Assembly (NCBI GenBank): GCA_012295275.1
Contig: CM022665.1
Coordinates: forward strand, 10,602,001-10,666,000
Reading direction: 5' to 3'
DNA length: 64,000 nucleotides
Origin: Chrysomallon squamiferum
Taxonomy: Eukaryota; Animalia; Mollusca
In this document: piece after piece, positions 27,301 to 62,740 of the stretch
How the letters are laid out: every line of letters begins with the position of its first letter
How positions within the stretch are numbered: the stretch's first letter is position 1
Notes under the pieces: model-generated
Told to the model about the DNA's origin: nothing
Seen by the model: the letters and a program-made list of their open reading frames with translations, nothing else
Database searches by the model: none
Made by a program: the position numbers and the translations under genes

Positions 27301-29573
27301 TAGTGAAGAGGTAATTTTTTTCTTTCTTTTTTGTCACATGATTTTATGGAGGCAGACTATATTCCTTGCATGATCTTTTACTTTTCTTAAATGAAAAGGA
27401 AATAAATAAATGAAACATATTTTAATTTAAATATATATTGAAATTATTTTTTATTATTATTATTTATTTTTGTTAAATTTTATTTGCTTTTTTTTTTTTT
27501 TTCCAGTAATAATGATTTCTATACAATAATAGACCTGCCTGTAGGTGACCATCAGTACAAATATTTAGTTGATGGGCAGTGGGTTCATAATCCTGGAGAG
27601 GTATGTAATTCTAAGTTTGTTTCTTTAAAGAGTTGTTCTTGAATCTTCAAGTTAAAAGATGGTATGTGTTTTTACTTAAACAAAAGCTATTGATCTACCT
27701 TACATTCTTTGAAACTGAAGTTATATTAGTAACCAGAACTGAAAAAAAGACTGTTTTATAGCTAAATAGTGATGGATCTTCAAAAATACTCTAGAATTAA
27801 AAAAAGGAATTTAAATATACATGTATAGTGATCTTCAAGGCTTTTCCAAATATTTAAGTATTTATGATCAAACTATAATGATACAGATCAAATAATCTGG
27901 TTAAATTTAAAAAAAAAATTCATAATAATACAGAGTAGTGACTTAGATATATACTTATTTTAATAAGGTCAGATGTAATATTTTTTTATGCATTTCATAT
28001 ACATGCATTCTTTAATTCTCATCTTGAAATGAAGTCAGGTACATCTTCTTTTAATTATATTTTTCTTTATTTTTCAGCCAACAACAAGTAACAGCATGGG
28101 GACATTAAACAATGTTATAAATGTTAAAAAATCTGACTTTGAAGTGTTTGAAGCATTAGCAATTGATAGCAGAAATACAAATGCAGCTAAAAAGCACCGT
28201 AAGTCAAATTTGTCTGTAATAAAGTTATTTTTGTATTATTTTCAAAGGATCAGTCCTTTTTGGTGTACCTGGTGATTTGATATGATCAAATAGATGCTTT
28301 ATCAAAAAGCTACAGGGTTAGCATTCATCTTGGGAAGAGGATGCATTCAGTACAAATGGCTCATGGACTGGCAGCTGGGAGCGTTCAGTCCTATACTAAT
28401 GTCATTACATTAAGTGTCAATATACCATTTGTAAAAAATTATTTTCTGTCTTTTAGAAGATACACCTATATCAGGATCTCCACCTGGAGAATATGGTCAA
28501 GAAATTCCTTCCAAACCAGCAGGTACAAAACACAGTGCACCTCCGTTTTTACCTCCACAGCTTCTCCAGGTTATTTTAAACAAGGACACACCAGCACATG
28601 TAAGTAAACTGAAATTTCTCATAATTTTTTGTTTACATTATTATTATTTATGCTAATCAGAACAAACTGATCTGTTTTTAAACACGTAACATGTTTGTGG
28701 TTAATTAATAATCATCATGTGTTAAATGTAAGCTAGATGTTTCAATTGAAAAACAAAAAAAAGGTAATTGTTAACATGTGCTTCATTATGTTTTCTACAA
28801 AGTATCTTTTATTATCATTTTGTTAATTAACATTTTGCATGATTAATAAAAATTAAATAAACTGATACTGATTGTTTGAAAATGTGAGTCATATAGTGAT
28901 GATAGGGCTAACTCCCCTTTAAGTCTGTATTCGTGATTTTTTTTTATTTGACTGTTTAGTTTTTCCAAGTAATTGTTTTATTATATATAATTACTGCTAT
29001 GGAAAGATAATTAATTTTTTTTGTTTTTAATGTTTACAGTGTGAACCTTCATTATTGCCTGAACCAAATCATGTGATGTTAAACCATCTTTATGCTTTGT
29101 CGATAAAGGTAAATATTTTCACAAGTTAAACCCTGCAAAATAATAGAAGTCATAATATAAATAATTTTTAAATTAAATTTTTTTTTTTTAATTATTATTT
29201 TTATTGTATTTATTCAACACATAAAAAAAAGGCACTGTTAATTATAATTTTCTGCTCCATGTGCCATGGAAGGGCCCAGATAGTAAAGAGAATTAACTAA
29301 TTAATTAATTATAATCTATTGATAAATTCCTTTTACAACATTGTAAGTCATTCCCAGTGAACGCAATATTTTTACATTCATGTGAAGAATTGTATCTTTA
29401 AATTATTTTTTGTTTTCGTTACTTTCATTTAACAGAACCAGACTTTGTTAAAACAAAAATTTTTGTATCTATTATTATTCTTGTTTATGTTTCAGGATGG
29501 AGTAATGGTCCTTAGTGCAACTCATAGATTCAGGAAAAAATATGTGACTACATTGTTATATAAACCTATCTAG
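24383..29573 (+). CDS. PRKAB1: 5'-AMP-activated protein kinase beta subunit
   Basis: Exons 24383-24523 (1a), 27153-27310, 27507-27600, 28078-28198, 28457-28599, 29040-29108 and 29496-29573; all GT-AG and phase-consistent. Glycogen-binding module PTVFKWEGGGKEVAISGSFNGW...HQYKYLVDGQW; KSDFEVFEALAID; C-terminal PPFLPPQLLQVILN...LPEPNHVMLNHLYALSIKDGVMVLSATHRFRKKYVTTLLYKPI*. Confidence 0.96.
25008..25169 (+). CDS. PRKAB1: Alternative first coding exon 1b of AMPK beta
   Basis: ATG-initiated 54-codon exon MGNSNSGSVK...ECPEIV ending at a phase-0 donor (gtg|gtaata), the same phase as exon 1a and the exon 2 acceptor. Confidence 0.75.
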
Positions 29574-35039: not shown

Positions 35040-38000
35040 TTAATGCAGATTTATAAAAGGCACACATTTTTTTTTATCAATTAGAGTTTTAATTTCTTGC
35101 ATCAACTCTGGATCACGTATAGAACACCATGCATAGTCTGTAGTCACTGCATCCATTGAGCTGTCACTTTTTGATGTCACAGTTAGCAGTATTGTCAGAC
35201 ACATTCCATCATGTTTTCCTGAAGGAATACCATAGTGTTCTATAGACAACATGCCACAAGTATCAGGTTTGCAGTCTGACAGGCTTATTTGTGAAAAGGC
35301 ATACTGAAAATAATAAAAATAAATAAATACTACATGATACAGAAGCACAAAAGTACAACAGCTTGAAATAAGAATTGGCTGTTTATAACGTAATCTTTAA
35401 CTATTATTATTGCAGTGTGCAACTGCACCATGCTGCTACATAAGAGAGTTGAGAAACATCAAAGGCAGTGTTATGAATATTCAAAGTCAGTTATAATTGA
35501 TCAAACATAAACTGCTGCAGGCAGCAGTTGATAAAGATGTATTCTTTTAAGATTATGAATATTAGTATTAGCAGTGACAAGAAATAAAAAATTGAGTTAA
35601 AAGTAGCATCACAATAATGGCTTTCAATAAAATAAAATATATTCTTAATGTAAGTTTTTATGCAAAATGCAACTGTTCTCAATTAACTCAGTTCTAAACC
35701 ATAGTCTTCATTGTGCATGAAACAACACAGAAAATAATCAAAATCACAACTTGTTTTTGATTTTCAAAAGAACAAAATCCTTTTCTATATTATCATTAAT
35801 TACTAACATGGAAATTCTCATGAAATAAAAATGAAATTTTCTTCAAAGGTATTTGTACTTCCCTAAGACAGTTATAATCTAGATATATAACGATTACTTG
35901 TCTGTAAAGTCCCATGAGTGGCAATTATACACAAGTTTGGCTATACATCTATTTACAAAAACAAATTTGTTTAAATAGATATTAATTTTGTAACCATTAA
36001 TTTTTGTTGAATCTTCTCTACTGTAGAAAGATTTTCAATAAGTAATTATTATTTTGTGCAGATGTTGTTAAACAATTATTCAATCAATTTAATAATTAAT
36101 TTCTGTTTCAGGAATAGGCTACATTTTAAAAAATATATTAATAACTTTTCAGTTGTCTGGAAGCAAATGTTACCTTAAATATACGAAAAACACAAACATT
36201 TGCAGAAACATCCCGTGCTGATATGATGACACTTGGAAAATGTACTCCTCCATTTGTATTCATTAAGATATTCAGGTTTCTGAAAAAGATAAATAAATAG
36301 CTATCTCCAATAATTAATTGTACTTAATACACTTTGTTTTAAATATTTAAATAAATTGAACATCTGATATAAGAGACCTCTAATGTTTCAAAAGCAAATG
36401 CCAAATGGAAATGAAATAAATATTTTGGTAATATTTTATAAATTATTTCTTTTATGTGAAATTAAATAAAGACTGTGTTGTATGAAAAACCAATTATCAA
36501 TGTAATAAGGAACATTACCCACTGGTGCTGGTTTTAACTATGACACATCTTAATATCATTTGATTGTGTGGCTGTATAACTGGCATTATGTCAAATGGTT
36601 GTTGATCTGACATTTCCTGTCTGTGACATTTGCCCATCTCTATTAAACGAATAATATCTCCAGCACTAAAAGGAAAAAAAATGATTTAAAAAATAATAAA
36701 ATAAAAATAAAATAATCCATGATGTACAGCTATTAACTTACTAAGTGAAATATATTATCTGAAACACAAAATAAACTCATGATTTGAAAGTATATAATTC
36801 AATACACTGCTGCCTTGTATTGTGTTGGCTATCTAATTTGTATAATACTATCAGTTAAAATATTTTAAAAAGAAAAAAGGAACAAAATGCCAACACATAT
36901 TTATGGAGTTATAATCACTTTTATAACATTAAAATTATTTTTAAAAATTCATACTAATGCACTGACAGGAAAAACAACATATTCACCGAAGTGGTATGTT
37001 TCTTTGTTTAATCTCATCAAACTTGATCCATTTTGCTTGCAGTGATTCTGCATCTGCATCTTTTTCAGTTTTCAATCTGCCACCTGTCAAAGATATTATG
37101 TTGTGAAAATGAAAATCTATATGGAGTCAGTATAAAAGTCACCTTTATGTGAAATTGGCTTCAAATTGGAATGATCAACTAAAGATTATCATGCAGAATA
37201 GTTTTATTAATATGTAAGAGCCGATTTATTTTTGGGCTACGGTGTTGTTAAATGTTCATTATTTATTCTGTTCAGTTTCTCATTTATAAAAACTCTTGTG
37301 GTTAATTCTGAGAGGACAAATGATGTTGATAATTTTTCATGAAAAATATGAGGTTCTAACTGTTGTTGTTGTTATTATTTGGTCCTTGCTTTATTAACAA
37401 AGATTGGCATCTAGTGAAAAAACAATAAAAATAACAAAGTTGACAGTATACAAAATATGTCAGTACCATTTTATCTGCTCACCAGTAACTTGTCCAGTAA
37501 ATGTGAGTCTGTACCAGTGTCCTCCTCCAAACTCAAATGAGAGCAGAGTTGTTGGTTCAAACTCCAGTCCTGTCTCTTCTTGTACCTCTCTCATAACAGC
37601 TTCCTATAGCACAGAAATCAATTTTCAGTATTTGTGACTTTAATAATCATAAAATTAATAGGAGAAAGAAAGAAAGACTGAGAAGGAATGATAATGTGTG
37701 ACATATAGAAAGTATCTTAGAATTGTGGTCTAGTAAATAAGAATTCAAATTTCACAGTGTTAGTGTGTTTAACATAATTATAGTCTGAGTATTAATTTGG
37801 AAATGTGTGACAAGTTAAAATCTAATTATACTGTAAAATTTCTTATATAATTATTTTACTGGTAAGCAGAATATTTGAAACTTTCAACTTTTATTAATCA
37901 AAATAAAGGAATTTGTTATATTCATTCTGTCCACAGACACTGAATTAAAGTGCTTCCTGTTCTGCAGAACAGCAATTATGAATGTATTCCATGTGTAGAC

Positions 38001-38977
38001 ATATAAATACCAAAAAAGGAACTATACACCTTGTTTGGCAAATGTTTTATATAAAAAAAATTAAATTTAAAAAAAAAAACCAGCATATATCAAGAATACC
38101 ATTTACCCTTCTGTCTTTAAAGACAACCACCACTTACTATAATTAAAATTAAAAAGAAAAATTAAGATTAAAGAAAATAAAAGTTCAATTTAGAAAACTC
38201 CAGATATATCTACTTTGAAGTTTTCTCCTGGTTCTACTCGACCAGCTGGTAAATACCATTCTCCATAGCATGATTTCTTTGCTTCCTGCATCATCAGAAC
38301 TTGATCCTTTTCATTGAACAGCACACCAGCAACAATATAGCAAATATTAAATTTTGTTCTTGGTACTATAGACTCTAAAAATAAAAATATAATTCATAAA
38401 GAGTTGTAAAGAATTTGCTTCCTTACAAACTAATAAAAAATGTATTCTGAAACAATTAACACAGCTGACTTTTGCTGCTGTTTAAAGAACTGTAAAATTA
38501 TATGGGGGGGAAAAAATACTGTTCTCTGCAAGAAAAGAATAAAAATAATATCAATATTAATATTTTAATTTTATCCTGACAAAATCTACCTGCAGTTATC
38601 TTGTTACTAAGCGTATTAGTTAATTAATTCAAATTGATATGATTGACAAATCTTTTTAACTATAAAATAGTTAAAGTGCAAGAAAAATACTGCACTTTAA
38701 CATTCTTTTTTCTTTACATTCTGTTTTCATTAGTTACTAAATTTGTTCATCAGTGTACACAAATTTAGTTTTGAACTCTGGCTTTTTTACTGCCTTTCCA
38801 ACAAGAAAGGGTAATCAAGGAAACAGTTCTATAGTAGTAAATGAGAATATATATTTGTATGTATGTATGCTTCAAACCTGTCTGCTCATTGAAGGCATCA
38901 ATTTTAAGAACAGGCACAGGCTGTTTGCTTATTAGCATCTTAATGGCAGCTTCAAAATCTGTATTTCTTGATTCCAT
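35040..38977 (-). CDS. NUDT18: 8-oxo-dGDP phosphatase NUDT18-like, copy A (331 aa, intact Nudix box)
   Basis: Exons 38977-38878, 38374-38214, 37603-37483, 37083-36987, 36665-36519, 36279-36174 and 35303-35040; phase-consistent. Motifs [26 protein letters not shown], Nudix box [33 protein letters not shown] and HDGMCLT are typical of NUDT18. Confidence 0.92.
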
Positions 38978-40456
38978 TGTAATTTTCTTTTTTGTCCCTA
39001 CAAGAAAAAATAGTATTGAAATTAAATTCAATTTATTCACTTGAAAATATGTAATAATAGACATATATTATCAGTCATTTCCACAAATATATTTTAAATT
39101 TTTTTTTGAAACACCAGCATAAATGCATGTGTATTTTAGGATATCATACCAAATATATGCTTTTAGCGTGGGGCATATGGAAGATAATTATAAAGTAAAA
39201 AATTTAAAATTTATGCACTGATAAAAACAAAAATCTTCATCTACTGTTAAAATGTTTTCAAATAAATGTTCATAAACTAAAACGTATCTACTATCTAGTT
39301 GCAACGATTTTATTTTTTTACCAATTTAATTAACTAATTTAGTTCGCATGGCTATTATTCTGCGAAATAAATAAACGTTTATCATTTAAAACAAATAACA
39401 TAATTTCCCAGAAAAATACTGATCACCAATTTGAAAATAACAGATTTTAAAAGCATCAGTTATTTTTCATTACACCAAGTGCTTGTGCGTGTATTGAAAG
39501 AGAATGAAATTCAGATAAACATACTTTTGATTTAGATTTGGTTAGGTAAATTAATTAAAACTGATTTTGAACAATCGTGGTGTAATAATAATAATAATAA
39601 AAATAACAATAACAATAACAACAAAATAACAATAATAATAATGACCAATTGAATATGTTATTAATCCATCGTAACCATGACTACGAATTTCTATTTTATT
39701 ACTGTTCGGAAGTTTCTTCAAGCTTATTTTTAACAGACGAAAATAAAAACCAGACGAGAACTTTGATTTGACAGAACAATAAAATTCGGGTATTAATTTA
39801 ACGAAATTGGGAATATTTAAATTTTATGACTACCAGTGATAGTGAGAATCATTTCTATCATTTTGATACTGATTATAAAGTGAAATCATTGTGTTTGTTA
39901 ATTACATAGCTTCACTAGCTTGACGTTATTTAATTATTATTTAAGCACATCACTCTTAGTTCGGAACATTTCTCGAGTTCAATGTTAAATAACGAGTTGT
40001 CAAAACAAAATGAGCAGAAATCCGTATGCACAGACAGGCACCAGTATAGTAATTTTAGACCTGTCGGTTTGTGGGGATGAATTTAAGTCAGTTTTAATTA
40101 CTTTTAGGGTACATAAATTCAGAAAATTACCACAGCTTCTAGCATATACATTTTAGTAAAATTTACTAAATTTATAAAATTAGTTTAAACGAGTGTTTAA
40201 ATCATAATCATAAAAAGACAGTATACTTTCATACTGCTGTCAGTGATGATAAAGATGATTAACAAGTATTTATTTATTTCACTGTTATTAGCATTATTAA
40301 ATTCATTCAAAATCACTTTGAATAGTTTGGAGGGGGATAATGTTTTCGGTTATTTTTTGGGGTGGTTGTGAGGTTTATTTTTGGTTTTGGTTCATTTAAT
40401 AGTACAGAAAACTTAATTATACCGCAGTTTCATGTCAGTGGGGTAACTAGGTTATC

Positions 40457-41148: not shown

Positions 41149-44100
41149 TTAATGCCGATTTATAAAAGGCACACATTTTTTTTTATCAATTAGAGTTTTA
41201 ATTTCTTGAATCAACTCTGGATCATGTATAGAACACCATGCATAGTCTGTAGTCACTGCATCCAGTGAGCTGTCACTTTTTGATGTCACAGTTAGCAGTA
41301 TTGTCAGACACATTCCATCATGTTTTTCTGAAGGAATACCATAGTGTTCTATAGACAACACACCACAAGTATCAGGTTTGCAGTCTGACAGGCTTATTTG
41401 TGAAAAGGCATACTGAAAATAATAAGTATTAAATAATAAATGTACAATAGAGAAGCACGAAAGTACACTAGTTTCTAATAAAAATCTGAATATGAGAAAC
41501 AATAACTCATACAATAAATTTTTTATATTAATGTGTACAGGGGAGTTTGACCAAAAGTATAAAATTAAATATATAACTTCTATTTATAAATAACCGTATC
41601 ACAAATTAGTTTGACCAAAAGTATGAAATTAAATATATAACTTCTATTTATAAATAACCGTATCACAAATTTTATAAACATATTAATGCCAAAAAAACCC
41701 AACAACATACAGATTATCGTTCAAAATCATCTTCTTTTAAGTTATATTTTTAAATGTATAATTTTGGATCCATTAAGTTCATTGTCAAATCTTCTCTACC
41801 AGAAAATGACTTCTAATAGGTAATTACTGTTTGTTTTCTGCAGGCATTGTTAATATTTCTTTAGTAGAATGTGAACTTTCATTTTCTGAAATAGTCTTAA
41901 GAACTATATTAGTAACTTTTCAGTTGTCTGATAGTAAACATTACCTTAAATATACGATTAACACAAGTATTTGCAGACATATCCTGTGTTGATATGATTA
42001 CACTTGGAAAATGTACTCCTCCATTTGTATTCATTAAAATATTCAGGTTTCTGAAAAACAAAATTACAAAATAAAAATAACAGAGTATTATTAATTACAG
42101 AAAAGTATAATAAATTAATTGTTTTACTCATTTCCTGAATTTAATCAAATGAATCTATACAATTACTTAATTCATGCTGATAATAATAACAAATAACAGT
42201 TTCAAAGAAGTGTTAAAATTTTGATTTCTGTTGGCTTACTGAATCAAATAGAATAAAAAACAAAATATATAGTTAAAGGTTTGCTTTTTTAATAATCTTT
42301 TAAACTGATTCTGGTTTATAGATATGATATTAGAATTCAAATTATCACCATGAATCACAAAAATGACCTGACTACATCTATCGCAAGACTACAGATTTTA
42401 AGCATGCCTCACTGAAGCATAATTCAAATGAATAAAATAAACTTTTGATTATTAGAAAATACAACTAGATTTAATAAAAATGGATATGCTGACCATCAAG
42501 ATGGTTTCATATATAGAATATTCGAAATATGTAACCTCACATACATAGTTATCTCCAAGAATTAATTGTACTTAATAGAGTTCACAGAGTTCAAGTGTAC
42601 AAATGAATTATTAAAATAAAATGAACAAATGACAAATAGGAATTAAATCATTCTTTTTAAGTGAAATTAAATAAAGACTGTGTTGTATGAAAAACCAATT
42701 ATCAATGTAATAAGGAACATTACCCACTGGTGCTGGTTTTAACTATGACACATCTTAATATCATTTGATTGTGTGGCTGTATAACTGGCATTATGTCAAA
42801 TGGTTGTTGATCTGACGTCTGTCTGTGATGTATGCCTATCTCTATTAATGGAATAATGTCTGCAGGTCTGCAAAAAACCAACAAAAAAAACCCATTAAAA
42901 ATAATAATAAATAAATAATCTAGAGTGCTAAGACATTTGATAAAATATATTACCTGCAACACAGACAAAGTCATCATTTGAAAGCATACAACTCAGTACA
43001 TCACAAAAATATATTGTATTGCTTATCTACTTTGTATAAATGACTACCAGTTAAAAAAAAATAAGCCAAAAAAAAAAAAAAAAAAGATTATGCCTCTGAT
43101 CTTTATTCAATGCAATAATAAATAAGAACATATTTAGTTTTTAAGATATAGTTATCAAATTTAATATTTATTATCTTAACAACGTTTATCAAAATGTGTA
43201 CTGGTTAACTGAATTATTCATGATTTTAAATACTGAGCAAGGGTACTGTTAAAAAGGAATTTTAAAAATAAGATAATTTTATTCTGATTTTCATGGAATT
43301 CAAAACACAAAATGTTACATGTACTTATCCAATAATAATTTTTCAAATTAAATTTATTTAAAAAATTATATACTGTTACACTCACTGAAAATTCAGCGTA
43401 CGAATTGGTATGTTTCTTTGTTTAATCTCATCAAACTTGATCCATTTTGCTTGCAGTGATTCTGCATCTGCATCTTTTTCAGTTTTCAGTCTACCACCTA
43501 TTAAGAAATTATGTTGCATTATTAAATGAAATGAAAATATGCATAAAATAAGTACAAAAGTTACCTTTCTATGAAATAAACTTGCAACAAGAATGACTTT
43601 TACAATGAACTAGCAAACAGACAAGTTCAGGTATTGTCATATAGACTAAGATAATATGGTTTGCAATCATACTGGTAAACATTTACCAGTAGAAGTTGGT
43701 ATAATCTGTATAATCTTGTACTTGCATTCAGATCTTCAAATCCATTTATACTTTATAAATATTCTGATCTAATTTTTTACTGATACATTGTTAAACATTA
43801 TTTTATTTATTCAGTTCAGTCTCTTATTTATAAAAATTGTTCCGATTAAATCTAAGAGTATTGTTGATAATTATCCAAGAAAAATATGAGAAGTTGAAAT
43901 ATTCATTACTTTTCCCCCCTTATTTACAAAAACCAAATTGTCTCACAATTGTTATTATTAGCAAAGGTGGCATCTCGTTAAAAAAAAAAAAAAAAATTAG
44001 TTGAAGGTACACAAAATAAGTCAGTACCACATGTACATTTTATCTGCTCACCAGTAACTTGCCCAGTAAATGTGAGTCTGTACCAGTGTCCTCCTCCAAA

Positions 44101-45009
44101 CTCAAATGAGAGCAGAGTTGTTGGTTCAAACTCCAGTCCTGTCTCTTGTTGTACCTCTCTCATAACAGCTTCCTATAGCACAGAAATCAATTTTCAGTAT
44201 TCGTGACTCTTTAATAATCATAAAATTAATGGAGAAAGAAAGATAAGGAATGATAATGTTATGTAACATATGCAAATATGTTTTTAGAACATTATTAGAA
44301 GTCTTTTAAAGACAACTAATACTGTTGTTATATGCAAATTTAAAAAAATTGAAGAAAAAAGAAAGAAAGAAAAATAAGATTATATTCACTCTAAAGTTTT
44401 CTCCTGGTTCTACTCGACCAGCTGGTAAATACCATTCTCCATGGCATGATTTCTTTGCTTCCTGCATCATCAGAACTTCATCCTCTTTATTGAACAGCAC
44501 TCCAGCAACAAGGTAGCAAATATTAAATTTTGTTTTTGGAATTATAGCTTCTGAAAAAAAAAAAATTAAAAATTAATTCACCAAACGTGAAGAATTTACA
44601 TACTTCTCTGCTGAGGGAACTTATCCCTGAAATCTATCTGCAGTTACTTTCTGTTATTAATAGTTAATTTATTTCAGATCAATATGACCGACAGATCTTT
44701 ATAATAACAGTAAAAAGGCAATGAAAATACTCCACTGCACTTAAATTTTTTTTTTTTTTTTTAACATTTTAATTTCACTAGTTACTAAATCTGTGCATCA
44801 GTGTACATAATAAACTCATCATATGTCCAGAAATTCTGAACTCTGATGCTTTTATTGCCTTTCCAAAAGAAATAATCAAAGGTAAGACTAGTACATGAAT
44901 ATATAAAACCTGTCTGCTTATTGAAGTCATCGGTTTTAACAACACGTACAGCCTGTCTGCTTAATAGTTGCTTAATGGTGGCTTCAAAATTTGTTTTCCT
45001 TGAATCCAT
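41149..45009 (-). CDS. NUDT18: NUDT18-like, copy B (Nudix box REVQQETG)
   Basis: Exons 45009-44910, 44550-44390, 44172-44052, 43497-43386 (donor shifted), 42867-42724, 42050-41945 and 41412-41149. Same exon structure as copy A and highly similar peptide. Confidence 0.9.
41544..41671. repeat. 64-bp direct tandem repeat x2 in the last intron of NUDT18 copy B
   Basis: agtttgaccaaaagtatRaaattaaatatataacttctatttataaataaccgtatcacaaatt at 41544-41607 and 41608-41671, one mismatch. Confidence 0.95.
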
Positions 45010-45099
45010 GAGTATTTTGTCTTCTTTTTTATAAATTTAGTCTCTGCAAGAAAAAATAGTATTAAACTTAAATTCAATTCATTGACATAAAAAAATATA

Positions 45100-46514: not shown

Positions 46515-49500
46515 ATGTATACTCAGTACAAGAAAGATTTACTGGGCCAAGTGAAAAAGGTAAAATAATATATGATTTTATGTACATAAAAAATTAATTT
46601 ACTAGTTAATTAGTAATTACATTTCAAAAGTTTTACATTTTCAAATTCTTTATCACAAAACTCATTTTTCAATTTTATAAAATAAATTTTAATTATTTCT
46701 TTATGTATAAATAACAGAATAATAATACACTGATATGTTCTGTTTACTAGAGTCTTAAGACTATACCAGTTCACAGACAAAGTGATAAAATCTCATATAT
46801 TCCAGCTCACAATATTTGGCCTTGATTCTTGTGACAAAGCTGTGAATTGTGGTTATATCTATTACCTATGTTACTTATATATATTTGGCTTGACTGTCAG
46901 GGTCTGAATCACTGAGTAATTTTAATTATTACTTATTGTCATTAACATGTAGGCCTACATATTTCTGTTACAATTAAGTGAAAGAGGCTCAAGTTTAATT
47001 AGGTTTTCATCAATATTTTTGTTTTCTTGTTCTGGCACATTCTGTTGCCCCAGGGTGTTCATATTTATGTGTGTAATTTAAATAAGGCTTAATTTAAACA
47101 ATTGAAATTAATGATTACTTCTGATGTAAAAGAATCTTTGGTGTTTACAGAACATGTAGGCTAAAAGTTCAAACATTAAAAACATTATTCACTAAATACA
47201 ATTAGATATTTATGTTTCCTTTTCATTGTTATCAGTTTTCTAATAATAAAGTTTTATTATGAAATAAAATTGTAATAATATTTTTAATTTTTGTTTTTAT
47301 GAGATGGTTCTACTTCATTATAAAACATGATTATCATCAAAGATTAATTACCATCTATACTGATAACAACATGAAGTATATAAAGCAGGGATACTTCAAA
47401 ATATTTTTGGTTTTGCTATCATGTCTATATTGCTGTCTTCTGATGGTGCACAGGTAGAGAACCAACTTACTGAAGTTGAAAAAACAGTGTCAGAAATATG
47501 GCAGCAGATAACAAGACAGATGAAAGAACCACAACATCCAGAGACAGTCACTGTTAATAAACATGAATTTAGAGGGTGGAAGAGTGTCCGCCTCTTCATT
47601 TCATCAACATTTACAGATTTTTTTAATGAGAGAGAAATTCTTGTCAAAAAGGTATGACCGTGTAATATAATTTTCTTACTTTTTTTTTTTTAAAGTTTCA
47701 AAATAATTTTTGGACATCTTAAAAAAAATTCTGAATTTTCTCACCATTTTTGAAAACATTCCTGAACAATTATCACACAATTTTAAAATTTTTAAACATT
47801 TAAAAATAAATTTGTCCATTTGATATTCAGAATTACAATATTTACTTCATATTTAACAACATAAATTAAATATTCTCCAGACTATTTTAACTAATTCTGG
47901 ATTCAGTGTTTTGCTTCTAATTGGTAACAATATTTACAGTTAATTAATTTAACTTTTTACAAAACATCAGAGCTAATATGACTAAAATATGTTTATGAAA
48001 AATAAGTATTAAAATTAATTTTCTGATTATTTTAATATTTTTATTATATCTGATAAATTCTTTTTTATATATATTTTATTAACTCTGATGTCTTTCTTCA
48101 TTAAACGACATATAAAAATCACAATCTTCAAAAACACTTTTGTTACAGATAAAAATCAGAATAAACACAAACACTTTCAAGTAAAAGTTTCAAAAGCAGT
48201 ATCTAAACATCATCCAGAAGATTATACAAACTTTAATTTTAGGTATTTCCAGAACTTCGAGAGTGGTGCAATGACAGGAGGCTGAAGCTAAGTGAGATAG
48301 ATTTACGCTGGGGCATCCCTGCAGATGCTACAAAAGGCGAGACTATTACCATCTGCCTTGAAGAATTAGACAGTTGTTATCAAAGTAGTGAGGGTGAACC
48401 ATTTTTCCTTAGTCTTCTCGGAGAAAGGTACAGTCTGTAAAAAAAATATTTTTAAATTAATATTTTAATGCAGTTAATATTGAATCTGCTGAGAGAAAGG
48501 TATGATCTGTAGTTAAAAATATTATAAAATGAATAGTTAATATAATTACAATTGAATCTGCTGGGAGAAAGGTATGGTCTATAGTTTAAAAGATTTTAAA
48601 ATGAATATTTTAATACAGTTAGTATTTAATCTGCTGGGAGAAATGTATTTCTGTGTGTTTGTTAACCAATTCAAAATATTATCACTGTTGTGAAATTTAA
48701 GTTGAATGATTCATTATATAAAAATTAATAATGTGTGCAATATTTTAATATTTATTTACTGTTGTGCACATAAAATGTGAGTGATTTGTGTGTTAATAAA
48801 ATAGATGAAGATTTGTGTTTTTCAGTTAACTCAGTCTGAAATTTATTGTCTGTTGTTTCTATAGATATGGATGGGTGCCTGACAAAAGTGAGGTGCCACT
48901 GGAAGTGGTTGAGAAATACAACTGGATTCCTGGAACCTCCATTACATTCATGGAAATAATGCATGGAGCTTTAATGTTAGTTTTGCTATTAATTAATATA
49001 CACATTAAGATAACTGAATGCAGACGACAACATTATTTAAATTTCAAGATGTAATGGAAATTCCGCAATTTAAATTGTTATTATTTAAAAAAACAAAACA
49101 AGGCTTTTTAAAATACTGGACAACAAAAAAATTTAAAAAAAGAAAAAGAAAATGGTGTTCAATTAATATTTAGTTAATATTTCATCAAACTAATTTTTTA
49201 GCTAATTTGAAGCTAAATGTATATCTTTTTTTGTATTTTTTAGTTTAGTTTATCATGGAACTTCATAGAAATATTTTTAAAGCTCAATAGTTATGATATT
49301 TTCTGGAAATGTATAATACAGTCAATTTTCTATGTAAAAACAATGGACCAGTCCTACTGGTTTTGATCACAGTGTGTCCAGTGAGAAATACACATGGAGA
49401 AACAAAAAACAAAATCTGATTTACTTTACTAATTACCACTTGCTCATTTCCTTGGTGTACTTTGTTGTTTTATAGATCAAGAAATCAGAATGCAGCTTTC

Positions 49501-52500
49501 TTTTTCCGTGACCCATCTTTCCTGTCAGACATACCAGAAGAGCATCAACACAGATTTAAAGATGAAGACCCTTTAGCTAAAGAGCACATACGTGTAAGAA
49601 ATTTACCTACATTATTCATTACTCCAACAATGATTTCAAGATCATTACATTATATACTTTGATGGGATGATATTCAAGTAGCATTTAGTCCTTGAATTAG
49701 AAAAATAATTCAATAGGAAATAGTTTTGACGTCATTTTCTTGTGATAGTTTTACTGTTTCCAGATGTGAACTGTAACAAATACTAAAACAAAAAAGGAAA
49801 TTAATTAGCACAAAAAAATGCCATGAGCAACGAAAACATAAAGCTTTGAAGTCATTTGCATTGACTATTATACAGGCCAAGCATCCAGTAACATATAAAA
49901 TAAATCTTTTTGAAGAGGATTTTATAACAATTTGTGATTAAAATTTTGTTATTGAAAAATGCTGTTGAAAATCATTCAAGGAGGTAGAAAGCTTTCAATA
50001 CATCTTCTTATTTTTTAATTTTTTTGTTTGTTTTTTGTATATAATATTTGAACATTCATCAAAGAAAGGATGCTTGGAGTAATTGTGACTTGATAGTAGC
50101 CTGTAATCCTTAAAATCTGGAAAATTGTGAAAATCAGCTTATCAATTGAGACCTCAAACCAAGCAATGGCAAGTTATTATCATTTTCGTGTGTGTGGATT
50201 GATTCAGCACCGTATATACATTTAGTGACCGTTTTAGAGGTTGAAATACATTGTATATTTGTATGAAAACCTTTGGTTCAGTGCAGTGGCTGCATAACAT
50301 CTGTCTCTTCCATAGTTCAAATGTATACCATTAGAAGACTGTACCCACCATAGTTAAAACATGATGTTGTTGTAGGTTTTGGAAATTGTTAACTTTGTCA
50401 AATGACATCTCAAACAGTCAAATAACATGTTACTGTAAGATATCTCACACGACAGTAAAAAGTTTTAATAGTCATGATTCCAGTGTCTAACACTCTGTTA
50501 ATTCAGTGCTTCTTAAATGATTGAATCGTTTATCTAGAGTTAATGAAACTAGAAGCATAATAAGGTAAAAATTACAAATACGTCAGGTGCAAACGAATGA
50601 AAGTTTATGGTTAATATTCAAGGATGAATTACCCTGAAATAGTTTTAGAAATATTGTGTTAAATAACTTGATCAGATAGTTATTGTTGACTTGCTTCTCA
50701 GAATAGAAAAAACCTCATTCAGAATGACGTGTTTTCCACTTTTAGAATATATCATACAATTACGGGATACCCTAATTTCTAAAATATTATTAGCATTTAA
50801 TAATCTAATAATCTGCGGTATGTATTATAACTTTAATTTGTTGAATTTTTCTTAATATTTAAGCATTTACAACAGATCACTAATCATGTTTTGTTTCTTT
50901 CATTTGTATTTCATTATAGAATAGTGTTCATTCAAAGTAATTCCTGTTTGGAGTGTAGCATATTTACAGGTAGTGGAGAGTGTTTGCATGAATTTGTTTG
51001 TTTCAGTGTTACCAGATGCATTGAGCTGTTATAGTTATAAAATAGTTTTGATAATAATCTGTAGTGTTTGTTTATTTTGTTTATTGTTATTGTTATTATT
51101 ATTATTATTTTACAGGTATTAAAATCAAAGATAAAAGAAATATTCCCAGCAAACACATTTTCCTACTCAGTTACCTATGGAGGTATAGTTAGTACCATGG
51201 GTCGAGATATGGTAATTCAAAATTATTTCTGTTTACAGTATAATTTCAATCAGCTTTTGTAGATTTTAATATGGTTAATAAATATACATAGAGAATTTAA
51301 TTTTTAAAAATTCATAAATAGCATTTTATTAACATGTTTTTTTCCAGAAGGGCTGGTTTTTATAATTATGCAGAATCTATATGAATCTATATGCAGAAGT
51401 TACGAATTTATACCAGTTAATTTTTTTAATTGGACCATCTGGATTTGTGGTAGTGTTTTATACAAAATATTTTTCTCTTTAATGCTCACTCTATGACAGG
51501 TATTTAATATAATATTATGGACTAAGTGTTTATTCTGAACTCTGTTATATGTATTTATTTATATAATAGCTGGGATGTTCTAACTATTATTTACTATGTT
51601 GTTTTTTTTCTTTCTTAAATAGGTACAGTTAGTAAATCTTGAAGAATTTTCTAACAAATGTTTGACATTCTTCAAAGATGCTATTCAAAGAAAATATCCA
51701 GATCAGCAGAAAAATGCAGATTATAATGAAATGGAAGAAGGTTTGTAGCAAATTATTTGATAAATGTTTGTGTTTAGCAGAGTTTACACCAAGTGACTTG
51801 TCACACTAACTTACAGCAGAAGTCAAATTGTTCAGTGAAAATACGTAAATCATAAATTCTCGGTATATCTGCTTTACCACATTCTGCTATTTACCTTATT
51901 TCTTTTAATTATTATTAAAAAAAATTCTAAAGATTTTGTATAAAAATGAAAACATTTAAATTTTGGAATCCAAATTTTATAAAAATGATAATAAATTTTA
52001 TATTTTATATAAATGTAATAAATTTAATTTTTAAAAATTATTTGTCTTTTTTTTAATTATATATATATATACATTTTTTATTATTATTGAACTGTAGAAA
52101 CTCATCTGCAAAAAATGTTCATCATAGAAAAGGCAGAAGACGTGTTTGGACGAGAAGATGACCTGGAAGTATTAATGGATTACATAAAAGGAACAAAAAT
52201 GTCTAGGCTTAATAAAACTGGTAATAAATAAATCATTTACTTACCTTTAAACAATAGCTGACACCATCTTTTGCTAATAATAATTTGAGATTCTTTTTAA
52301 TTTTTTGTTTTTTTAAAATTTTTATCATGATCAAAGAACTTCAGAATAAAAGTTAAACTAATAATTATTTAAGCAGATTAGTTTACGAAAGAAATTTATT
52401 TTAATGAGGGTTAAAGGTTTCACTTGATAAAAAAAAATTCAACTTGTCCTGTAAATGTATGATTTAATTTCGGATTTATAATGAATTTATCATTATTCTT

Positions 52501-55500
52501 TCTTATTCTTTTCTATTTCAGAGGGATCTGAAACAACAATCAGTAAGTATTTTGAATTTGGTATATTATGTACATCCAAGTGTTTATTTTAAGTTATATC
52601 AACCTTTGCTGATAATAAAGTAAAATAATAATAATAATATATCAAGCAATGGATGCTGCCATTTTAATTTCTTGATGTATATGTCGTACAGAGAAATTAC
52701 AGCAAGCTCATTATTAATTTGTTTACTTACTGTGGCATATTTACCTTCTTCTTTGTTTTTGTTTGCTTGTTATTATTTCTACATCATTAATCATTTGCTT
52801 TTGGTTTTTTGTTCAGGGGACAAAGGTCAGACTTGGGAGTTGTCTGATGATGATAATTTTATCTGTGTGGTGGAAGGTCAGACAGGGTGGGGGAAGACAT
52901 CCCTCCTGTCATGTCTTGTTGTTAAGCTTATCACTGTAAGGATATAGTTCTGTTATTATTCTCTTCATTCTCTTAATTTTTATTATTGTTGTTGTTATTT
53001 TATTATTATTATGATTATTATTTTTTGCAATATTAACTTAATAATGATAACAACATTATTATTATTATAATTATTATTAACTGTATAATTTGTTTTGGGA
53101 GGGGTTTTGTTGGGTTTTTTTTGTTGTTGCTTATTTATTAGTGTTTATATATTATGTAGCATTTTAAGACTTAATTTATAAATTATTAGTTTAATCTATC
53201 TTTTCAAACCACTGCATTATTTTTATCCTGTTTCCTTTATGCTTTTTCTGTCACTAATTATATAAAGTTATTTGAGATGTTGTCTTATTATTAGTAGTTT
53301 TCTTTATTTTATTATTATTATTATTATTTGTTTTTTGTTTTTGTTTTTGTTTTTTTTGTTACAGACTATACCTGATTTATTTTTTCACTTCTGTGGCAGC
53401 ACAACACAGAGTTGTATTGAGAGTCAACTACTGAAAAGAATGATACAGTTTTTAAATGTGGACAAATCAGATGTGCAGATAGGTGAACGTATTTCTAAAA
53501 CACCCCAGAAGTAGCTTATTAACTAAAGCTAATTTTTAAAAACAGTACCACCTTGACTGTATGTTAGATTAATGATATCAGAAATGTTAATTGAATCATT
53601 TTATTATTTTTTTATTTTGCTTTCAGTTAAAATGAAAATAAAATCATATTGTTTTTATAGTGTTAAAATACATTTCTGAGACTTAAATTATTATGTTTTT
53701 AATACAGAGCATACAAATATGAATAACTAACATTTGCTAAACAAACTAGGCAGCACCTATCAGTACATAATCAACATTTTCAACAGTTCATGATTATTAT
53801 TAGAAATTGATTAACTGGAATAAATGCAACATTAATCTACAAGATCAAATATACTTTATTAATCTTGTTCTTTTCTTTTGTTTTGTTTTTTCCAATAATT
53901 AAAATGAACAAAATAATAATGCATTTGTGATACATCAACATTGTCAAAATAGCATAGAGGTTACATCTAAATGGTAATCTAAGATACTGTGTTTTGCTTG
54001 TTTATAGCCTTTATTTTATTATTATTATTTTTTTTTTTTTCAGTGAAGGATGAGAATTTACAGGACTGTACTGTAGAAGGATTGATAGAAATTTTCAACA
54101 AAGTTCTGGTCAGATTTAGACAAAGCGAGAGAAATGCTGTAATTGTTATTGATGCTGTCAATGAAGTATGTTGTATAAATTTTCTTTTTTTTTTACAGTA
54201 ATACTGAAGCTAAATTAAGACAAGCAAAATACTGGATAATACAAGAAATCTCATCACAATTAACAATATACATGTAATATTCAGAAAGCATATGAAATAA
54301 TTTCTGAAAATTTTAAACAGATTCCAATGAAAGAGAGATTTTATTTATCATTTATAGATACATTAGGAGTTAAATAGAGCTACTAAAGCATATAAAGAAA
54401 CATTCAGTTATTGAATTTTTATTAATGAGTAGATGCAAACCGAATCTATAATATGAATAATTAAGAACCTGTAAAACACAGCATATAAGCAAAAACCAAA
54501 AAAAAAATATAATTTTTTTTTAAATATAAAAATAACAGATAAAAGAATAAAGAATTAAAGTTTGCATCAAAATTCTAATAGCAATAAATTTTAATATTCA
54601 GTACATTTAAAAAAAAAAAGATAAAAAAAATGAAAAGAAAAAGTAGGTAATTCTCCTATCACTTTGGCTTATACCAGTGTAAACTGAGTTATTTTTTTTT
54701 GCAGCTGACTACAAATAATACAATAAAACATCTCAGTTGGCTGCCACCATCTATTCCTAAAAATCTGTGTCTGATAGTGAGTTCAAATGAACATGTTATA
54801 ACATTAGCTAGACTGCGAGATCATCCAGCATATTGGTACAAAATGAATCCTCTTTCTAATGACAGCCTGAAAAGATTAGCTATCAAGTATCTGGCAAATT
54901 TTTCAAAGGTATTATTTGAATTAATTAAACTAATGTTGCTATTTAAATTAAGACCAAATTTACATAAAAATAAGATTAACAATAAATGTAAGTGTATTAT
55001 TTGTCTTAATGATGATCAAACTTAATATTTTGATTAAATTATAAGGAAAATAAAGTGAAAAAATCCTATGTTTGAAAGTCAATATTAGTTTATTTAAATT
55101 GATTTAGCAGTTCAAAACTAAATTTCTTGAAAGTAATATATATTTGCAAGACAGTATTCATCTTCTTAGATTAACTGCTGTACAAGATGAATAAATATAA
55201 ATTCAGCAATACGTATTCGTTGGCATTTAAGTCATGTTTTATTTCATTCTTCTTTCTCTTATTTAAAAGATATTTGAATGAACAATAATCTTCAGTTTAG
55301 AAAATATTTATTAAAATGTCTTGTTTGAATGTTTTTTCTTAATGAATAGCTTTTTTATAATATTTTATATTCTTCATGAAATTGTCCTGTTGGAGGTTTC
55401 ATTTTATAATAAACAAATTCACTGGATTGTAATTTTGATCTTTTGTGTCAGAGGCTGGCTGATCAACAGATGGCCACTTTAATGATCCAGAGTAAAGTGA

Positions 55501-58370
55501 ACAGTCCACTGTGGATGATGCTGATGTGTGAAGAACTGCGAGTGATTGGTGATTTCAGAACTATTGACGAGAAGATTTTAGAAATGCCTGAGTCTCTTGA
55601 TGGATTGTTTATTATCATTTTACAGAGGTTACAACAAGAAGATGACACTGGATTGATCAAAAAGGTATTGTACAATGAAACTGGAGTTACGAAAATTATC
55701 ACATCAAATAAAAAGTGGTTTGGAAAAAAGCAGTCTTATCATTGACATAATTTCAATGCTAAGTTGTAGAATAATATTAAAACTTCAAGTAAAAATTGCT
55801 GTAGTGAATTAAAACCTCAGTCTGGCATATTAATTCATTCACTGTGCATTCATTTTGTTGTTTATCGTGTTATTCTTTACTATTTATTTTGTCTGCTACC
55901 AGAAATTACTACTCCTTGGCTCTGAATGTGCCTTAGTAATCATTTTTTCATTTACTGTAATTTGATTTTTTAAATCAGTTAATTATTTATGTCATTTTTA
56001 GACATCCATTCTTTATTTAATTTGTTCTGTTTTAGACTCTTTGCTCTTTGGCATCATCAGAAGCAGGAATTCTTTCATCAGACATACTGAAAGTTCTAGG
56101 AGACGTAAAGAAGAAGGAAACTGCTCCACCACTTTACTGGGCTCAGGCTAAAAGACATCTGAAACCTTACATTCGGATCACAGGATTTCCTAAAGAATAC
56201 ATAACATTTTACCATGAATCAATAAGAAAGGTACACATACTGTAGAATGTGGGGAAACTGTAAGCATAGATATTCTCTTATCAGAGGCAGGTTCCAAATT
56301 TTAGATAATATTATGTCACTGTGATGGATATGTTTACTTTCAAGATGAAATAATTATAACTATAATGAAAGAAACCCATGTAGGTTACAAACATTATTTT
56401 TAAGCCATAATATTTCAGTAAAAAAAATGTCAGAAAACAACTGAAGCTTCCATTTTTATTTATTCAGTATTCAAGCGTTGTTTTTTTTTTTAATGTTTTT
56501 TTTTATATTAAATGTATTTTAATTTTTTTTTTTTTTTAAATTATGAAATCATTTGAAAGGATCTTTACAAATAAATATTATAATGGAATTTTTGTTATTT
56601 TTTGTTTTTTACATGATTAAGGCTGTGGTAAAGAGTCTGTTGTTAGAACGTGAGGAATATCTACTGTGGCAGAGTCATCTTGCTGACTACTATCAATACT
56701 GGTGTGAGAATTTGTCTCTCAAGATATATTACCTACCTCTACATCTGAAACAAGCTACAGAACATGACAGGTAAAGGGATATCATGTTATAAATATATAC
56801 ATTTAAGAAAATGTTTGTAAAAAAAATAAAATATAGAATAACAGTTTCTACAAAATTTAAGGGCTGTTTAAATATTTAAAGATTTAGTTGAGGAGTTGTT
56901 GTGTTATGTAAATATATATATATTTTTTTAAAAAGACACCACAAAAATTGGTAAGACTATGCCTACAGCATTTTAACAAAGTTTAACCATTAAATTTGTT
57001 GCTAATTACAGACTACAAAAATATATTTTAAAATATTTTGGACATAAACCATGGTAAAAGAATTTCATAAAATTAATACTAAATTTTTTTTTTTTTTTTT
57101 TTTTTTGTATGTCACCATGTCATTGTCTTTAGCACTAAAATGGTTCCTATAAATGTACTGCAAGTAATAAAATAATAGTTAATGATTTTGGAGTTGGAGA
57201 TTCTGGTAACTATTTTGTCATTTTGTTCATATCTTAGTGGTTTTTGTGAACATTAAATATAAAAGTCATATAAAGAGAATAGTCTATGAATACTTTTGAA
57301 TAATATTCTTCAATATTTTGGTGTGATTCAGTCAAGATTTTATTATTATACAGTTATTTTATTTTCCAAATAGTTAATTACTTAAATATTCCATCCATCA
57401 TTTGTGACAGTTATGGATTTGGGAGGTATGAGAATTATGAGTAATGTTAAATAAAAACATATTAATATTTAATAATTCTATGTATGTCTTCAGGCTTATT
57501 GACTTTCTTCGTAATGACAGGGATTCAATGAAAATATCTCCACCACAACGTAGCAGATATTTTGAGGTTGGTAAAACAAAATTTCATTTGATATATAAAA
57601 TATCATTCACAAATGGTAATATACACGTTCATGAAATGTTATCTTAATATTAGATACTAAAGAAAAGGAAACCCATACAAAATCAACTCCAAAACAGCAG
57701 GAACCTAAAATATATTATTAGAAAGATGCAGTGTTTGATACATACACAAATTCTGCACTCCACCTTTATAACTTCACGCCTCCCTCTGTTTCACTTCATC
57801 CATCTGCGTGAAATAAAAAAAAAAAAAAAAAAAAGGTTTTTTAAAGATTTAGCATATTATGTCTATATATTGAATCACAACAATACAAGTGTTTTTTTAA
57901 CACATTATAACACATGGTGAATCTGATCACATGAAAACGAGTTACCTAATGACATGCAATTCCAAGATTTAATATTATCTTTGTTTTAAATCTTTTTTTT
58001 TTTTTTTCATCACACTGTTTTATTTCAGGATGTCCGATGTATGCTTGTAGCAGACAGTGCATTACCAATGACACAGGCTGCTGTAATATGTCAGAGATGT
58101 CGAAAAAAGATTGGTGTATTTAATCCAGGCAATATGTTTATAGCAGAGAACAGCTGTATTATTTGTGCTTCGTTTTGTAATACATTCATGAAGAATCCAC
58201 CAGGCAGATACTGTTCATTCCATTCAACAAAATTTAGAAATGTCTGTACTGCTTGCGGCTTTCATGTATTTCCAAATGATGTCAATTCTGTAGCTGGCAA
58301 GCTCTGCAACTGGTGTTCTTTTGGAATCAATGGTAAAAAATGTGTTTTCATTGGCTCTAGGAACAGATAG
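46515..58370 (+). CDS. DUF4062 + STAND/NACHT-type P-loop NTPase (TEP1/NWD/NPHP3-like) with a C-terminal PHF5A-like Cys-rich zinc domain, ~849 aa
   Basis: 18 phase-consistent GT-AG exons: 46515-46559 (least certain), 47454-47651, 48243-48427, 48865-48975, 49476-49593, 51116-51211, 51623-51740, 52098-52220, 52522-52542, 52817-52935, 53365-53482, 54044-54165, 54705-54908, 55452-55664, 56036-56230, 56622-56770, 57494-57566 and 58029-58370 (2550 nt). DUF4062 motifs VRLFISSTFTDFFNERE, IDLRWG, LLGERYGWVP, SITFMEIMHG; VFGRE; Walker A GQTGWGKTS; Walker B VIVIDAVNE; SWLP; NSPLW; FYHESIR. Confidence 0.9.
48410..48650 (+). repeat. ~72-bp minisatellite repeating an exon end and splice donor
   Basis: The ct.ct.RgagaaaKgta unit recurs with GT at 48428, 48500, 48572 and 48645. 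Confidence 0.85.
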
Positions 58371-62428: not shown

Positions 62429-62740
62429 TTAACAGAAAGAAAATTCAGACTCTACTCTTTCTTTCAACTCGTTGATCTGCTGAAGGAGACTCGATGTACT
62501 GTTGTGCACCGTCTGACCATAGGCAGCCATGTCATCTGTTGTAGCGTAGTCTTGGTCATTCCAGTCACTATCTTCATTCGACTCACTAAGACTAGAGAAA
62601 GAGCTGGCACGACTACTCATCTCAGTTCCAAATGAATATTCTGAGTAATTATCTTGAAGTACTGTCTTGTACTCTTGTATAGATTCATGCAAGGACCAGA
62701 GTTGACATAGAAGAGAGATGTCATGCTGTCTCAGGTCAGC
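62429..62740 (-). CDS. FAM89A: FAM89/LURAP-domain protein, last coding exon (upstream exon not found in the window)
   Basis: Acceptor ttttgtag| then ADLRQHDISLLCQLWSLHESIQEYK, matching the FAM89 signature (M)VGLRQLDMSLLCQLxSLxESIQEYK, followed by a Ser/acidic tail and stop at 62429. Paralog A versus B is not resolvable. Confidence 0.88.
   Translation of the reverse strand, partial: ADLRQHDISLLCQLWSLHESIQEYKTVLQDNYSEYSFGTEMSSRASSFSSLSESNEDSDWNDQDYATTDDMAAYGQTVHNSTSSLLQQINELKERVESEFSFC

Follow-up and report, generated by a model that had tools for sequence, protein, structure and literature searches.

A TEP1-type STAND protein of the mollusc Chrysomallon squamiferum with a C-terminal zinc domain predicted to share the knot fold of PHF5A/Rds3

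A stretch of 64,000 nucleotides of the Chrysomallon squamiferum genome (GenBank assembly GCA_012295275.1, contig CM022665.1, positions 10,602,001 to 10,666,000 of the forward strand), referred to here as the window, carries a STAND gene at 46515..58370 on the plus strand. Its protein joins a DUF4062 domain, also named TeTIR, to a NACHT-type nucleotide-binding domain and ends in a zinc domain predicted to have the knot fold of the spliceosomal protein PHF5A/Rds3. That all three are encoded by one spliced gene is virtually certain. The protein represents an ancient, real variant of the TeTIR-STAND proteins that is apparently undescribed, and its last domain, going by the predicted models, probably adds a second family to the PHF5A knot fold. 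The reading tentatively preferred here is that of a TEP1-type STAND protein with a predicted TeTIR NAD+-cleaving enzyme (NADase), a NACHT switch and a predicted zinc-knot sensor, likely for a polyanion such as RNA.

Gene structure and splicing

The STAND gene has 18 exons that join into 2550 nucleotides, encoding 849 residues and a stop codon. All 17 introns are GT..AG and the joined frame has no internal stop. The features of the gene are:

46515-46559, 47454-47651, 48243-48427, 48865-48975, 49476-49593, 51116-51211, plus strand: coding exons 1 to 6
51623-51740, 52098-52220, 52522-52542, 52817-52935, 53365-53482, 54044-54165, plus strand: coding exons 7 to 12
54705-54908, 55452-55664, 56036-56230, 56622-56770, 57494-57566, 58029-58370, plus strand: coding exons 13 to 18
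47577..51724, plus strand: DUF4062/TeTIR TIR-like domain, about residues 57-285
48953..48955, plus strand: codon of the predicted catalytic Glu173
52139..54830, plus strand: NACHT-type nucleotide-binding domain, about residues 305-500
52876-52899, plus strand: Walker A of the NACHT domain
54145-54165, plus strand: Walker B of the NACHT domain
54831..56630, plus strand: helical domain 1 and winged helix, about residues 501-665
56631..57566, plus strand: helical arm, about residues 666-736, running straight into the knot
57567..58028, plus strand: last intron, 462 nucleotides, phase 0, GT..AG
58029-58370, plus strand: last exon, residues 737-849, three-zinc domain with a predicted PHF5A/Rds3 knot fold, then the stop codon
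58384..58389, plus strand: AATAAA, candidate polyadenylation signal

The likely start codon was placed by the similar N-terminus of Gigantopelta aegis P0044, the closest relative retrieved (64% identity over 830 aligned positions).

A first-pass annotation of this DNA, made from the letters alone, had joined the last exon to those of the NTPase. RNA contigs bear this out: the last intron is spliced out and the junction 57566/58029 is present in three of four runs, all from one study, the fourth run having no contig that spans it. The RNA comparison covers the last two exons, and the evidence for the 16 junctions before them is the open frame and homology. For that between exons 16 and 17 there are also the loose contig ends, which upstream of exon 17 are exon 16 sequence in all four runs when compared by eye. 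The 1028 letters that one contig carries ahead of exon 17 would, judged by their number alone, extend to about codon 369, in the NTPase, and one contig extends past the AATAAA to 58440. The sole base difference between the RNA and the window, at position 58115, is synonymous. The 21-nucleotide micro-exon at 52522-52542 lies between the TeTIR domain and the P-loop, and matching residues are present in P0044.

The C-terminal zinc domain

The last exon encodes 12 zinc ligands, 11 Cys and one His, in the order already read from it in the first-pass annotation, one Cys, five pairs and one Cys: C740; C757/760; C779/782; C798/H801; C809/812; C829/832; C841. The pattern is not due to chance, since 94 of 95 homologous domains have all 12 ligands. 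In every one of the 95, ligand 7 is a His.

An AlphaFold2 prediction of the domain from a 21-row alignment has a mean predicted local distance difference test score (pLDDT) of 92.7 and a predicted template modelling score (pTM) of 0.84, with all five models between 90 and 93 in pLDDT. The top 13 rows of a Foldseek search are all PHF5A/Rds3-type chains (E 0.022-0.54, probability 0.69-0.99), and the next row is a RING domain with a probability of 0.06. Only two of 48,161 PDB representatives reach Z 2, both of PHF5A/Rds3 type: 5gm6_J, with Z 6.6 and a root mean square deviation (rmsd) of 3.1 A over 84 aligned residues, and 5zya_D, with Z 6.4 and 3.0 A over 82. Human PHF5A (5syb_A) matches the model with Z 7.4 and 2.9 A over 82 residues. 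These structural matches are middling by Z, yet they are unrivalled and span the whole domain. The predicted model has a triangular three-zinc fold, and its end-to-end superposition on PHF5A suggests a trefoil knot in the backbone. The three zinc ions would be bound by C740/C798/H801/C841, C757/C760/C809/C812 and C779/C782/C829/C832. A PHF5A-type fold of the last exon, as first proposed from the ligand order, is therefore very probable on the predicted models, which match PHF5A/Rds3 alone among the PDB representatives.

Pfam PHF5 (PF03660) scores 16.9 bits on the window exon (E 0.0075) and 18.3 on the best relative, does not reach its gathering score of 26.7, and has no match in any of the 30 full-length members scanned, so that annotation has overlooked the knot. 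Profile comparison with PHF5A in the colinear register scores 27.5, against a shuffle mean of 14.0. Since none of 60 column shuffles that keep the Cys columns reaches this score, common descent of the zinc domain and PHF5A, though distant, is likely from sequence. The PHF5A set is of low diversity, consisting of 28 sequences from metagenome loci retrieved with one motif, after two intron-affected rows were dropped.

The register of the two domains is less clear-cut. The motif LCNWCSFG..C had been likened to PHF5A, and the resemblance holds, but it is to C46/C49/C58 and not to C72/C75/C85, which the colinear order requires. Sequence matches to Pfam and the PDB place the last third of the domain on PHF5A/Rds3 residues 15-63 and 28-61. 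These matches prompted the idea of a circular permutation relative to PHF5A, which is possible but not established. The knot is threefold pseudo-symmetric, and none of the three registers scored against PHF5A wins; their hhalign scores are 27.5, 25.7 and 24.9. Anchored scores outside the ligands are negative in all three (-16.4, -16.9 and -15.0). Votes of single sequences are divided 12, 18 and 24 of 54, with mollusc-like rows favouring the permuted register and others not. The structural alignments to PHF5A are colinear, but the threefold pseudo-symmetry permits that regardless.

The first CxxC segment may resemble CRIPT; no family member matched Pfam Cript. The ESM Atlas returned only leads below 0.9 for the knot and generic DUF4062-NACHT clusters for the Xenopus protein. 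A word-based search of longer proteins with the last exon gave no match, and no fold matching the knot was found among viral structure models.

The TeTIR domain and the NACHT switch

The family profile matches the TEP1 TIR crystal chain 11gz_A at E 8e-30 and 2e-40, and numbering by chain position + 893 reproduces TEP1 R908, R954, R976 and E1008. So aligned, F63, S66, R75 and R103-W104-G105 of the window protein correspond to F902, S905, R914 and R942-W943-G944 of TEP1, and C119, R143 and E173 to C959, R976 and E1008. In the available text of two preprints, DUF4062 is a TIR-like NADase and human TEP1 cleaves NAD+ through E1008 (10.64898/2026.05.01.722283), and the domain is named TeTIR, with mutations of F902, R914, R942, C959, R976 and E1008 abolishing activity (10.64898/2026.09.21.753143). 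All six essential residues (F63, R75, R103, C119, R143 and E173) are kept in the window protein. The set is complete in 78 of 85 knot-bearing rows, across Choanozoa; four rows have Lys for R976, one has Asn for E1008 and two are truncated. The Glu itself is present in 83 of the 85. The TeTIR domain is the most conserved of the family, with a mean identity of 50%. An active NADase is a probable prediction from these residues.

The RWG-bearing TeTIR domain lies directly before a NACHT-type ATPase with Walker A, Walker B and a winged-helix His. Walker A Lys is kept in 82 of the 85 rows, Walker B Asp in 81, Pro545 in 71 and the winged-helix His657 (56213-56215) in 79. A model of the Lymnaea orthologue (pLDDT 77.3, pTM 0.62) matches CED-4, MalT, Apaf-1 and NLRs at E about 1e-9 to 1e-8, and its helix pattern, with Pro545 and His657, delimits what are presumably the helical domain 1 and winged helix of STAND proteins. 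The helical arm that follows has no WD40 or TPR array. DUF4062 and NACHT matches are weak on single window exons and above the Pfam cut-offs in the full-length P0044. Pfam found no repeat family and no TROVE or vWA domain in the 30 members scanned. The first-pass description as a DUF4062-STAND NTPase lacking WD40 and TPR repeats, laid out as effector, switch and sensor, thus agrees with the TeTIR residues, the STAND fold matches of the orthologue model and the terminal zinc domain.

Distribution and phylogeny

A search with the last exon retrieved 17 proteins, 13 of them true relatives; five were long DUF4062/NACHT proteins or fragments. P0001, P0009, P0010 and P0016 from this search were rejected as repetitive junk. 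With a 12-member profile, 7996 candidates were scored and 1173 proteins were found at E up to 1e-60, of which 120 were listed. Among these listed matches the zinc domain is in 82 of the 120 homologues. Among the named carriers are bivalves, gastropods, a chiton, Lingula, a nemertean, Helobdella (in which the final four ligands differ), rotifers, Actinia, Pocillopora, Trichoplax, echinoderms, Branchiostoma, Petromyzon, salamanders and frogs including Xenopus (XP_004910693), with one choanoflagellate, Choanoeca flexa. The phylogenetic distribution that the first-pass annotation had called for therefore runs from a choanoflagellate to frogs. Most of the named carriers are labelled TEP1-like or TPR-repeat-containing in the databases. 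The 120 listed of the 1173 matches include no member from teleosts, sharks, amniotes, arthropods, nematodes or sponges, which is weak evidence of lineage loss.

Of the 38 knot-less homologues among the matches listed, 10 sit among knot-bearing rows of the tree, mostly as what seem to be truncated models. The remaining 28 group apart together with P0030, and 26 of these 29 carry PF13424 or PF24885. An unrooted tree built from 49 selected core sequences places the 35 rows that have the knot and the 14 that lack it on opposite sides of a single branch with 100/99 support. In it the arrangement of the knot-bearing animal rows broadly mirrors the species groups, and long branches lead to the choanoflagellate row and to P0140.

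In seven genomic open reading frames an intron-derived leader, judged by eye, ends three residues before the first Cys, and therefore the knot domain begins at a shared intron. This makes possible the exon shuffling that was proposed for the last exon, as an ancient event, the fusion being shared with the choanoflagellate.

Several members have features of their own. The Choanoeca flexa protein (P0138) has an N-terminal PH domain and a P-loop without the Walker A Lys, and retains the TeTIR residues and the knot. In the gene model of P0015 (Lottia gigantea), the complete knot is preceded by a partial second copy of its first third. Several echinoderm and hemichordate species are listed with two to three copies from the TPR-ending sister group (P0107-P0139), which is named only TEP1-like.

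Conservation and charge of the knot

Identity between the knot and PHF5A in the structural alignments is 19-24%, mostly at the ligands. The loop after the first CxxC has 18 residues (11-19) in the knot family and 4 in PHF5A. In the available text of the PHF5A structure paper (PMC5458519), Tyr36 contacts the branch-point adenosine, the protein contacts the intron RNA backbone, and it nestles in a cavity of SF3B1, with 28 of its residues contacting SF3B1. Tyr is not among the six commonest residues of the knot at the Tyr36-like position in any register.

Within the family, the 85 members share 21% identity in the knot outside its ligands, compared with 50% in TeTIR and 30% in the nucleotide-binding domain. 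The corresponding values in 12 frogs are 62, 73 and 58%, and the knot value in 11 gastropods is 25.5%. The net charge of the knot lies between +4 and +14 throughout the 95 domains, with a median of +9, whereas that of the PHF5A ring without its basic tail is 0. No upstream window of the same length is as basic as the knot in 60 of 85 proteins.

Mechanism and alternative readings

The knot occupies the C-terminal end, where the sister group has TPR-type repeats. Beyond the architecture, it is inferred that the knot would stand in for a WD40 or TPR array as the sensor and would bind a polyanion such as RNA. Binding would lead to nucleotide exchange, then to oligomerisation and NAD+ cleavage by the TeTIR domain. 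That the knot is a ligand-binding regulator is fairly likely, while nucleic acid as its ligand can be proposed only tentatively. The fullest version, a pre-animal NLR-like receptor in which a PHF5A trefoil knot senses RNA and triggers a TIR-like NADase, is doubtful. If it is true, there would be an RNA-gated pathway of NAD+ depletion in invertebrates and amphibians.

Several observations weigh against the preferred reading of an NADase gated by a polyanion sensor. In 25 of 85 proteins an upstream window is at least as basic as the knot, and the arm adjoining the knot is also basic. Zinc-thiolate domains are often basic merely to offset their thiolates, and for this reason the basic charge is a hint only. 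There is mostly one listed copy per species and the tree is largely species-like, which is unlike a pathogen arms race. The P-loops are degenerate in the choanoflagellate member and in P0140. TEP1 R908 and R954 are not conserved (T69 and E114 in the window protein). According to the available parts of the TeTIR preprints, full-length NWD1, NWD2 and NPHP3 did not cleave NAD+ (10.64898/2026.05.01.722283), NWD2 is only weakly active, so that retention of the catalytic Glu is no guarantee, and STAND activation has not been demonstrated even for TEP1 (10.64898/2026.09.21.753143).

It is possible that the same NADase-STAND protein uses the knot as a protein-binding or autoinhibitory cap, guarding or scaffolded by a host protein in self-surveillance or stress sensing, with no nucleic acid involved. 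PHF5A itself is mainly a protein scaffold, given its 28 residues on SF3B1 (PMC5458519, available text), there are family-specific conserved positions around the knot (R731, R739, F767 and N775), and low copy number with largely vertical descent would fit a conserved host partner. However, the identity outside the ligands, both in the family and in the gastropods, is low for one conserved protein partner, and it is the charge of the knot that is conserved rather than its sequence, which leaves this reading somewhat unlikely. A protein with a silent or very weak N-terminal domain, as in NWD1, NWD2 and NPHP3, would be a nucleotide-gated scaffold and not a death effector. The little or no activity of several Glu-bearing TeTIR proteins and the loss of R908 point that way, but the six essential residues stand in 78 of 85 rows. 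R908 is also less needed, R908A of TEP1 retaining considerable activity, and homologues from zebrafish, sponge and Dictyostelium are active (10.64898/2026.09.21.753143, available text). A silent domain is unlikely on this evidence.

The first-pass annotation had suggested an integrated PHF5A decoy or a link to the spliceosome, in which the knot, as a mimic of PHF5A or a binder of SF3B1 or SF3B3, would sense attack on the spliceosome. The predicted fold is shared with PHF5A alone among the 48,161 representatives, and the Cys pattern by itself does not account for the profile similarity (0 of 60 shuffles). The similarity outside the ligands is slight and its scores negative in three registers, though, and Tyr36 is not conserved, the loop has 18 residues instead of 4, ligand 7 is His throughout, the charge differs and no viral fold matches. 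PHF5A sits in the SF3B1 cavity (PMC5458519, available text), whereas the knot has a longer loop. A decoy is distinctly unlikely, and the link to the spliceosome is unsupported. It would also be conceivable that the domain is no PHF5A-type knot and that a similar Cys pattern led the predictor towards a fold already known, as no Foldseek match reaches E 0.001, all Z are below 8 with an rmsd of about 3 A, Pfam PHF5 stays below its cut-off or absent and the predictor places no zinc. The agreement of five models at pLDDT 90-93, the gap in Foldseek probability after the 13 PHF5A/Rds3 rows, the conserved pattern of 12 ligands and the profile similarity beyond shuffles make this very improbable.

Neighbouring genes

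Two near-identical tandem Nudix hydrolase genes (Pfam NUDIX), presumably NUDT18-like, lie upstream of the STAND gene, and the nearer is head-to-head with it, the start codons being about 1.5 kb apart. A link of these neighbours to ADP-ribose turnover is speculation. The LURAP-family gene, which is presumably FAM89-like, converges on the 3' end of the STAND gene. The neighbouring features are:

27084-27311, plus strand: AMPK1_CBM glycogen-binding exon (E 1.5e-9)
36500-39010, minus strand: Nudix hydrolase gene
41150-45010, minus strand: Nudix hydrolase gene, the nearer to the STAND gene
62432-62740, minus strand: LURAP-family exon (E 8e-5)

Comparison with known systems

No description of the TeTIR-NACHT-knot architecture was found in the full-text literature, in keeping with the first-pass annotation, to whose reader it was unknown; subscription papers lie mostly outside such a search, and supplementary architecture figures may bear on the point. 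The terms PHF5, Rds3 and zinc do not occur in the available text of the TeTIR preprint (10.64898/2026.09.21.753143), nor PHF5 or zinc in that of Osinski et al. or of the Evangelion preprint (10.64898/2026.06.25.731849). In the text available, the PHF5A fold is described as having no protein but Rds3 in the PDB and no apparent cellular counterpart (PMC5458519), and Rds3 is discussed only for permuted treble clefs (PMC4506424). The knot of PHF5A/Rds3 has so far been treated as without counterpart outside the spliceosome, and a second ancient family with the predicted fold would make it a reusable module. Descriptions of TeTIR NADases date only from 2026; the tails given for them are WD40 or TPR, and they have no known trigger. 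The knot family is compact (about 850 residues) and mostly low-copy, and its entire sensor end is one domain of 110 residues, which makes ligand and activation directly accessible to experiment, in Xenopus and molluscs among others. Many database entries called TEP1-like or TPR-containing, though without TROVE and TPR domains, are corrected by this assignment.

The window protein shares with TEP1, NWD1, NWD2, TTC41 and NPHP3 the TeTIR domain before NACHT, the RWG loop and the six essential residues. The C-terminal part of TeTIR proteins is either WD40 or TPR repeats (10.64898/2026.09.21.753143, available text). The window protein has no TROVE or vWA domain and no such repeats, and its chain ends with the three-zinc domain about 110 residues past the arm. 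It is not a TEP1 orthologue by domain content, as only about 56 residues precede its TeTIR domain and TROVE and vWA are absent. The database name TEP1-like reflects TeTIR/NACHT similarity only. The nearest group retrieved, the TPR-ending DUF4062-NACHT paralogues of echinoderms, hemichordates and others (named TEP1-like or DDB_G0287407-like), has the same TeTIR and NACHT motifs, but ends in TPR-type repeats and lies across one well-supported branch. These paralogues have two to three listed copies in four echinoderm species, against one of the knot type.

With PHF5A/Rds3 (PF03660), the trefoil (triquetra) zinc knot of SF3b, the domain shares the pattern of one Cys, five pairs and one Cys, and the predicted knot superposes end to end over 82-84 residues (rmsd 2.9-3.1 A, Z 6.4-7.4). 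PHF5A is a stand-alone protein of 110 residues, whereas the knot is one domain of an 849-residue STAND protein, with about 20% identity, one His ligand, longer loops and a basic ring. It is poorly conserved outside its ligands and has neither Tyr36 nor the near-invariant SF3B1-facing sequence of PHF5A.

Plant TIR-NLRs with integrated domains are alike in concept: they too pair a TIR-like NADase and a STAND switch with a sensor end that is not a repeat array. Integrated decoys have usually arisen recently in particular lineages and still resemble their host targets, whereas the fusion of the knot is ancient and fixed, and the knot is far from PHF5A in sequence.

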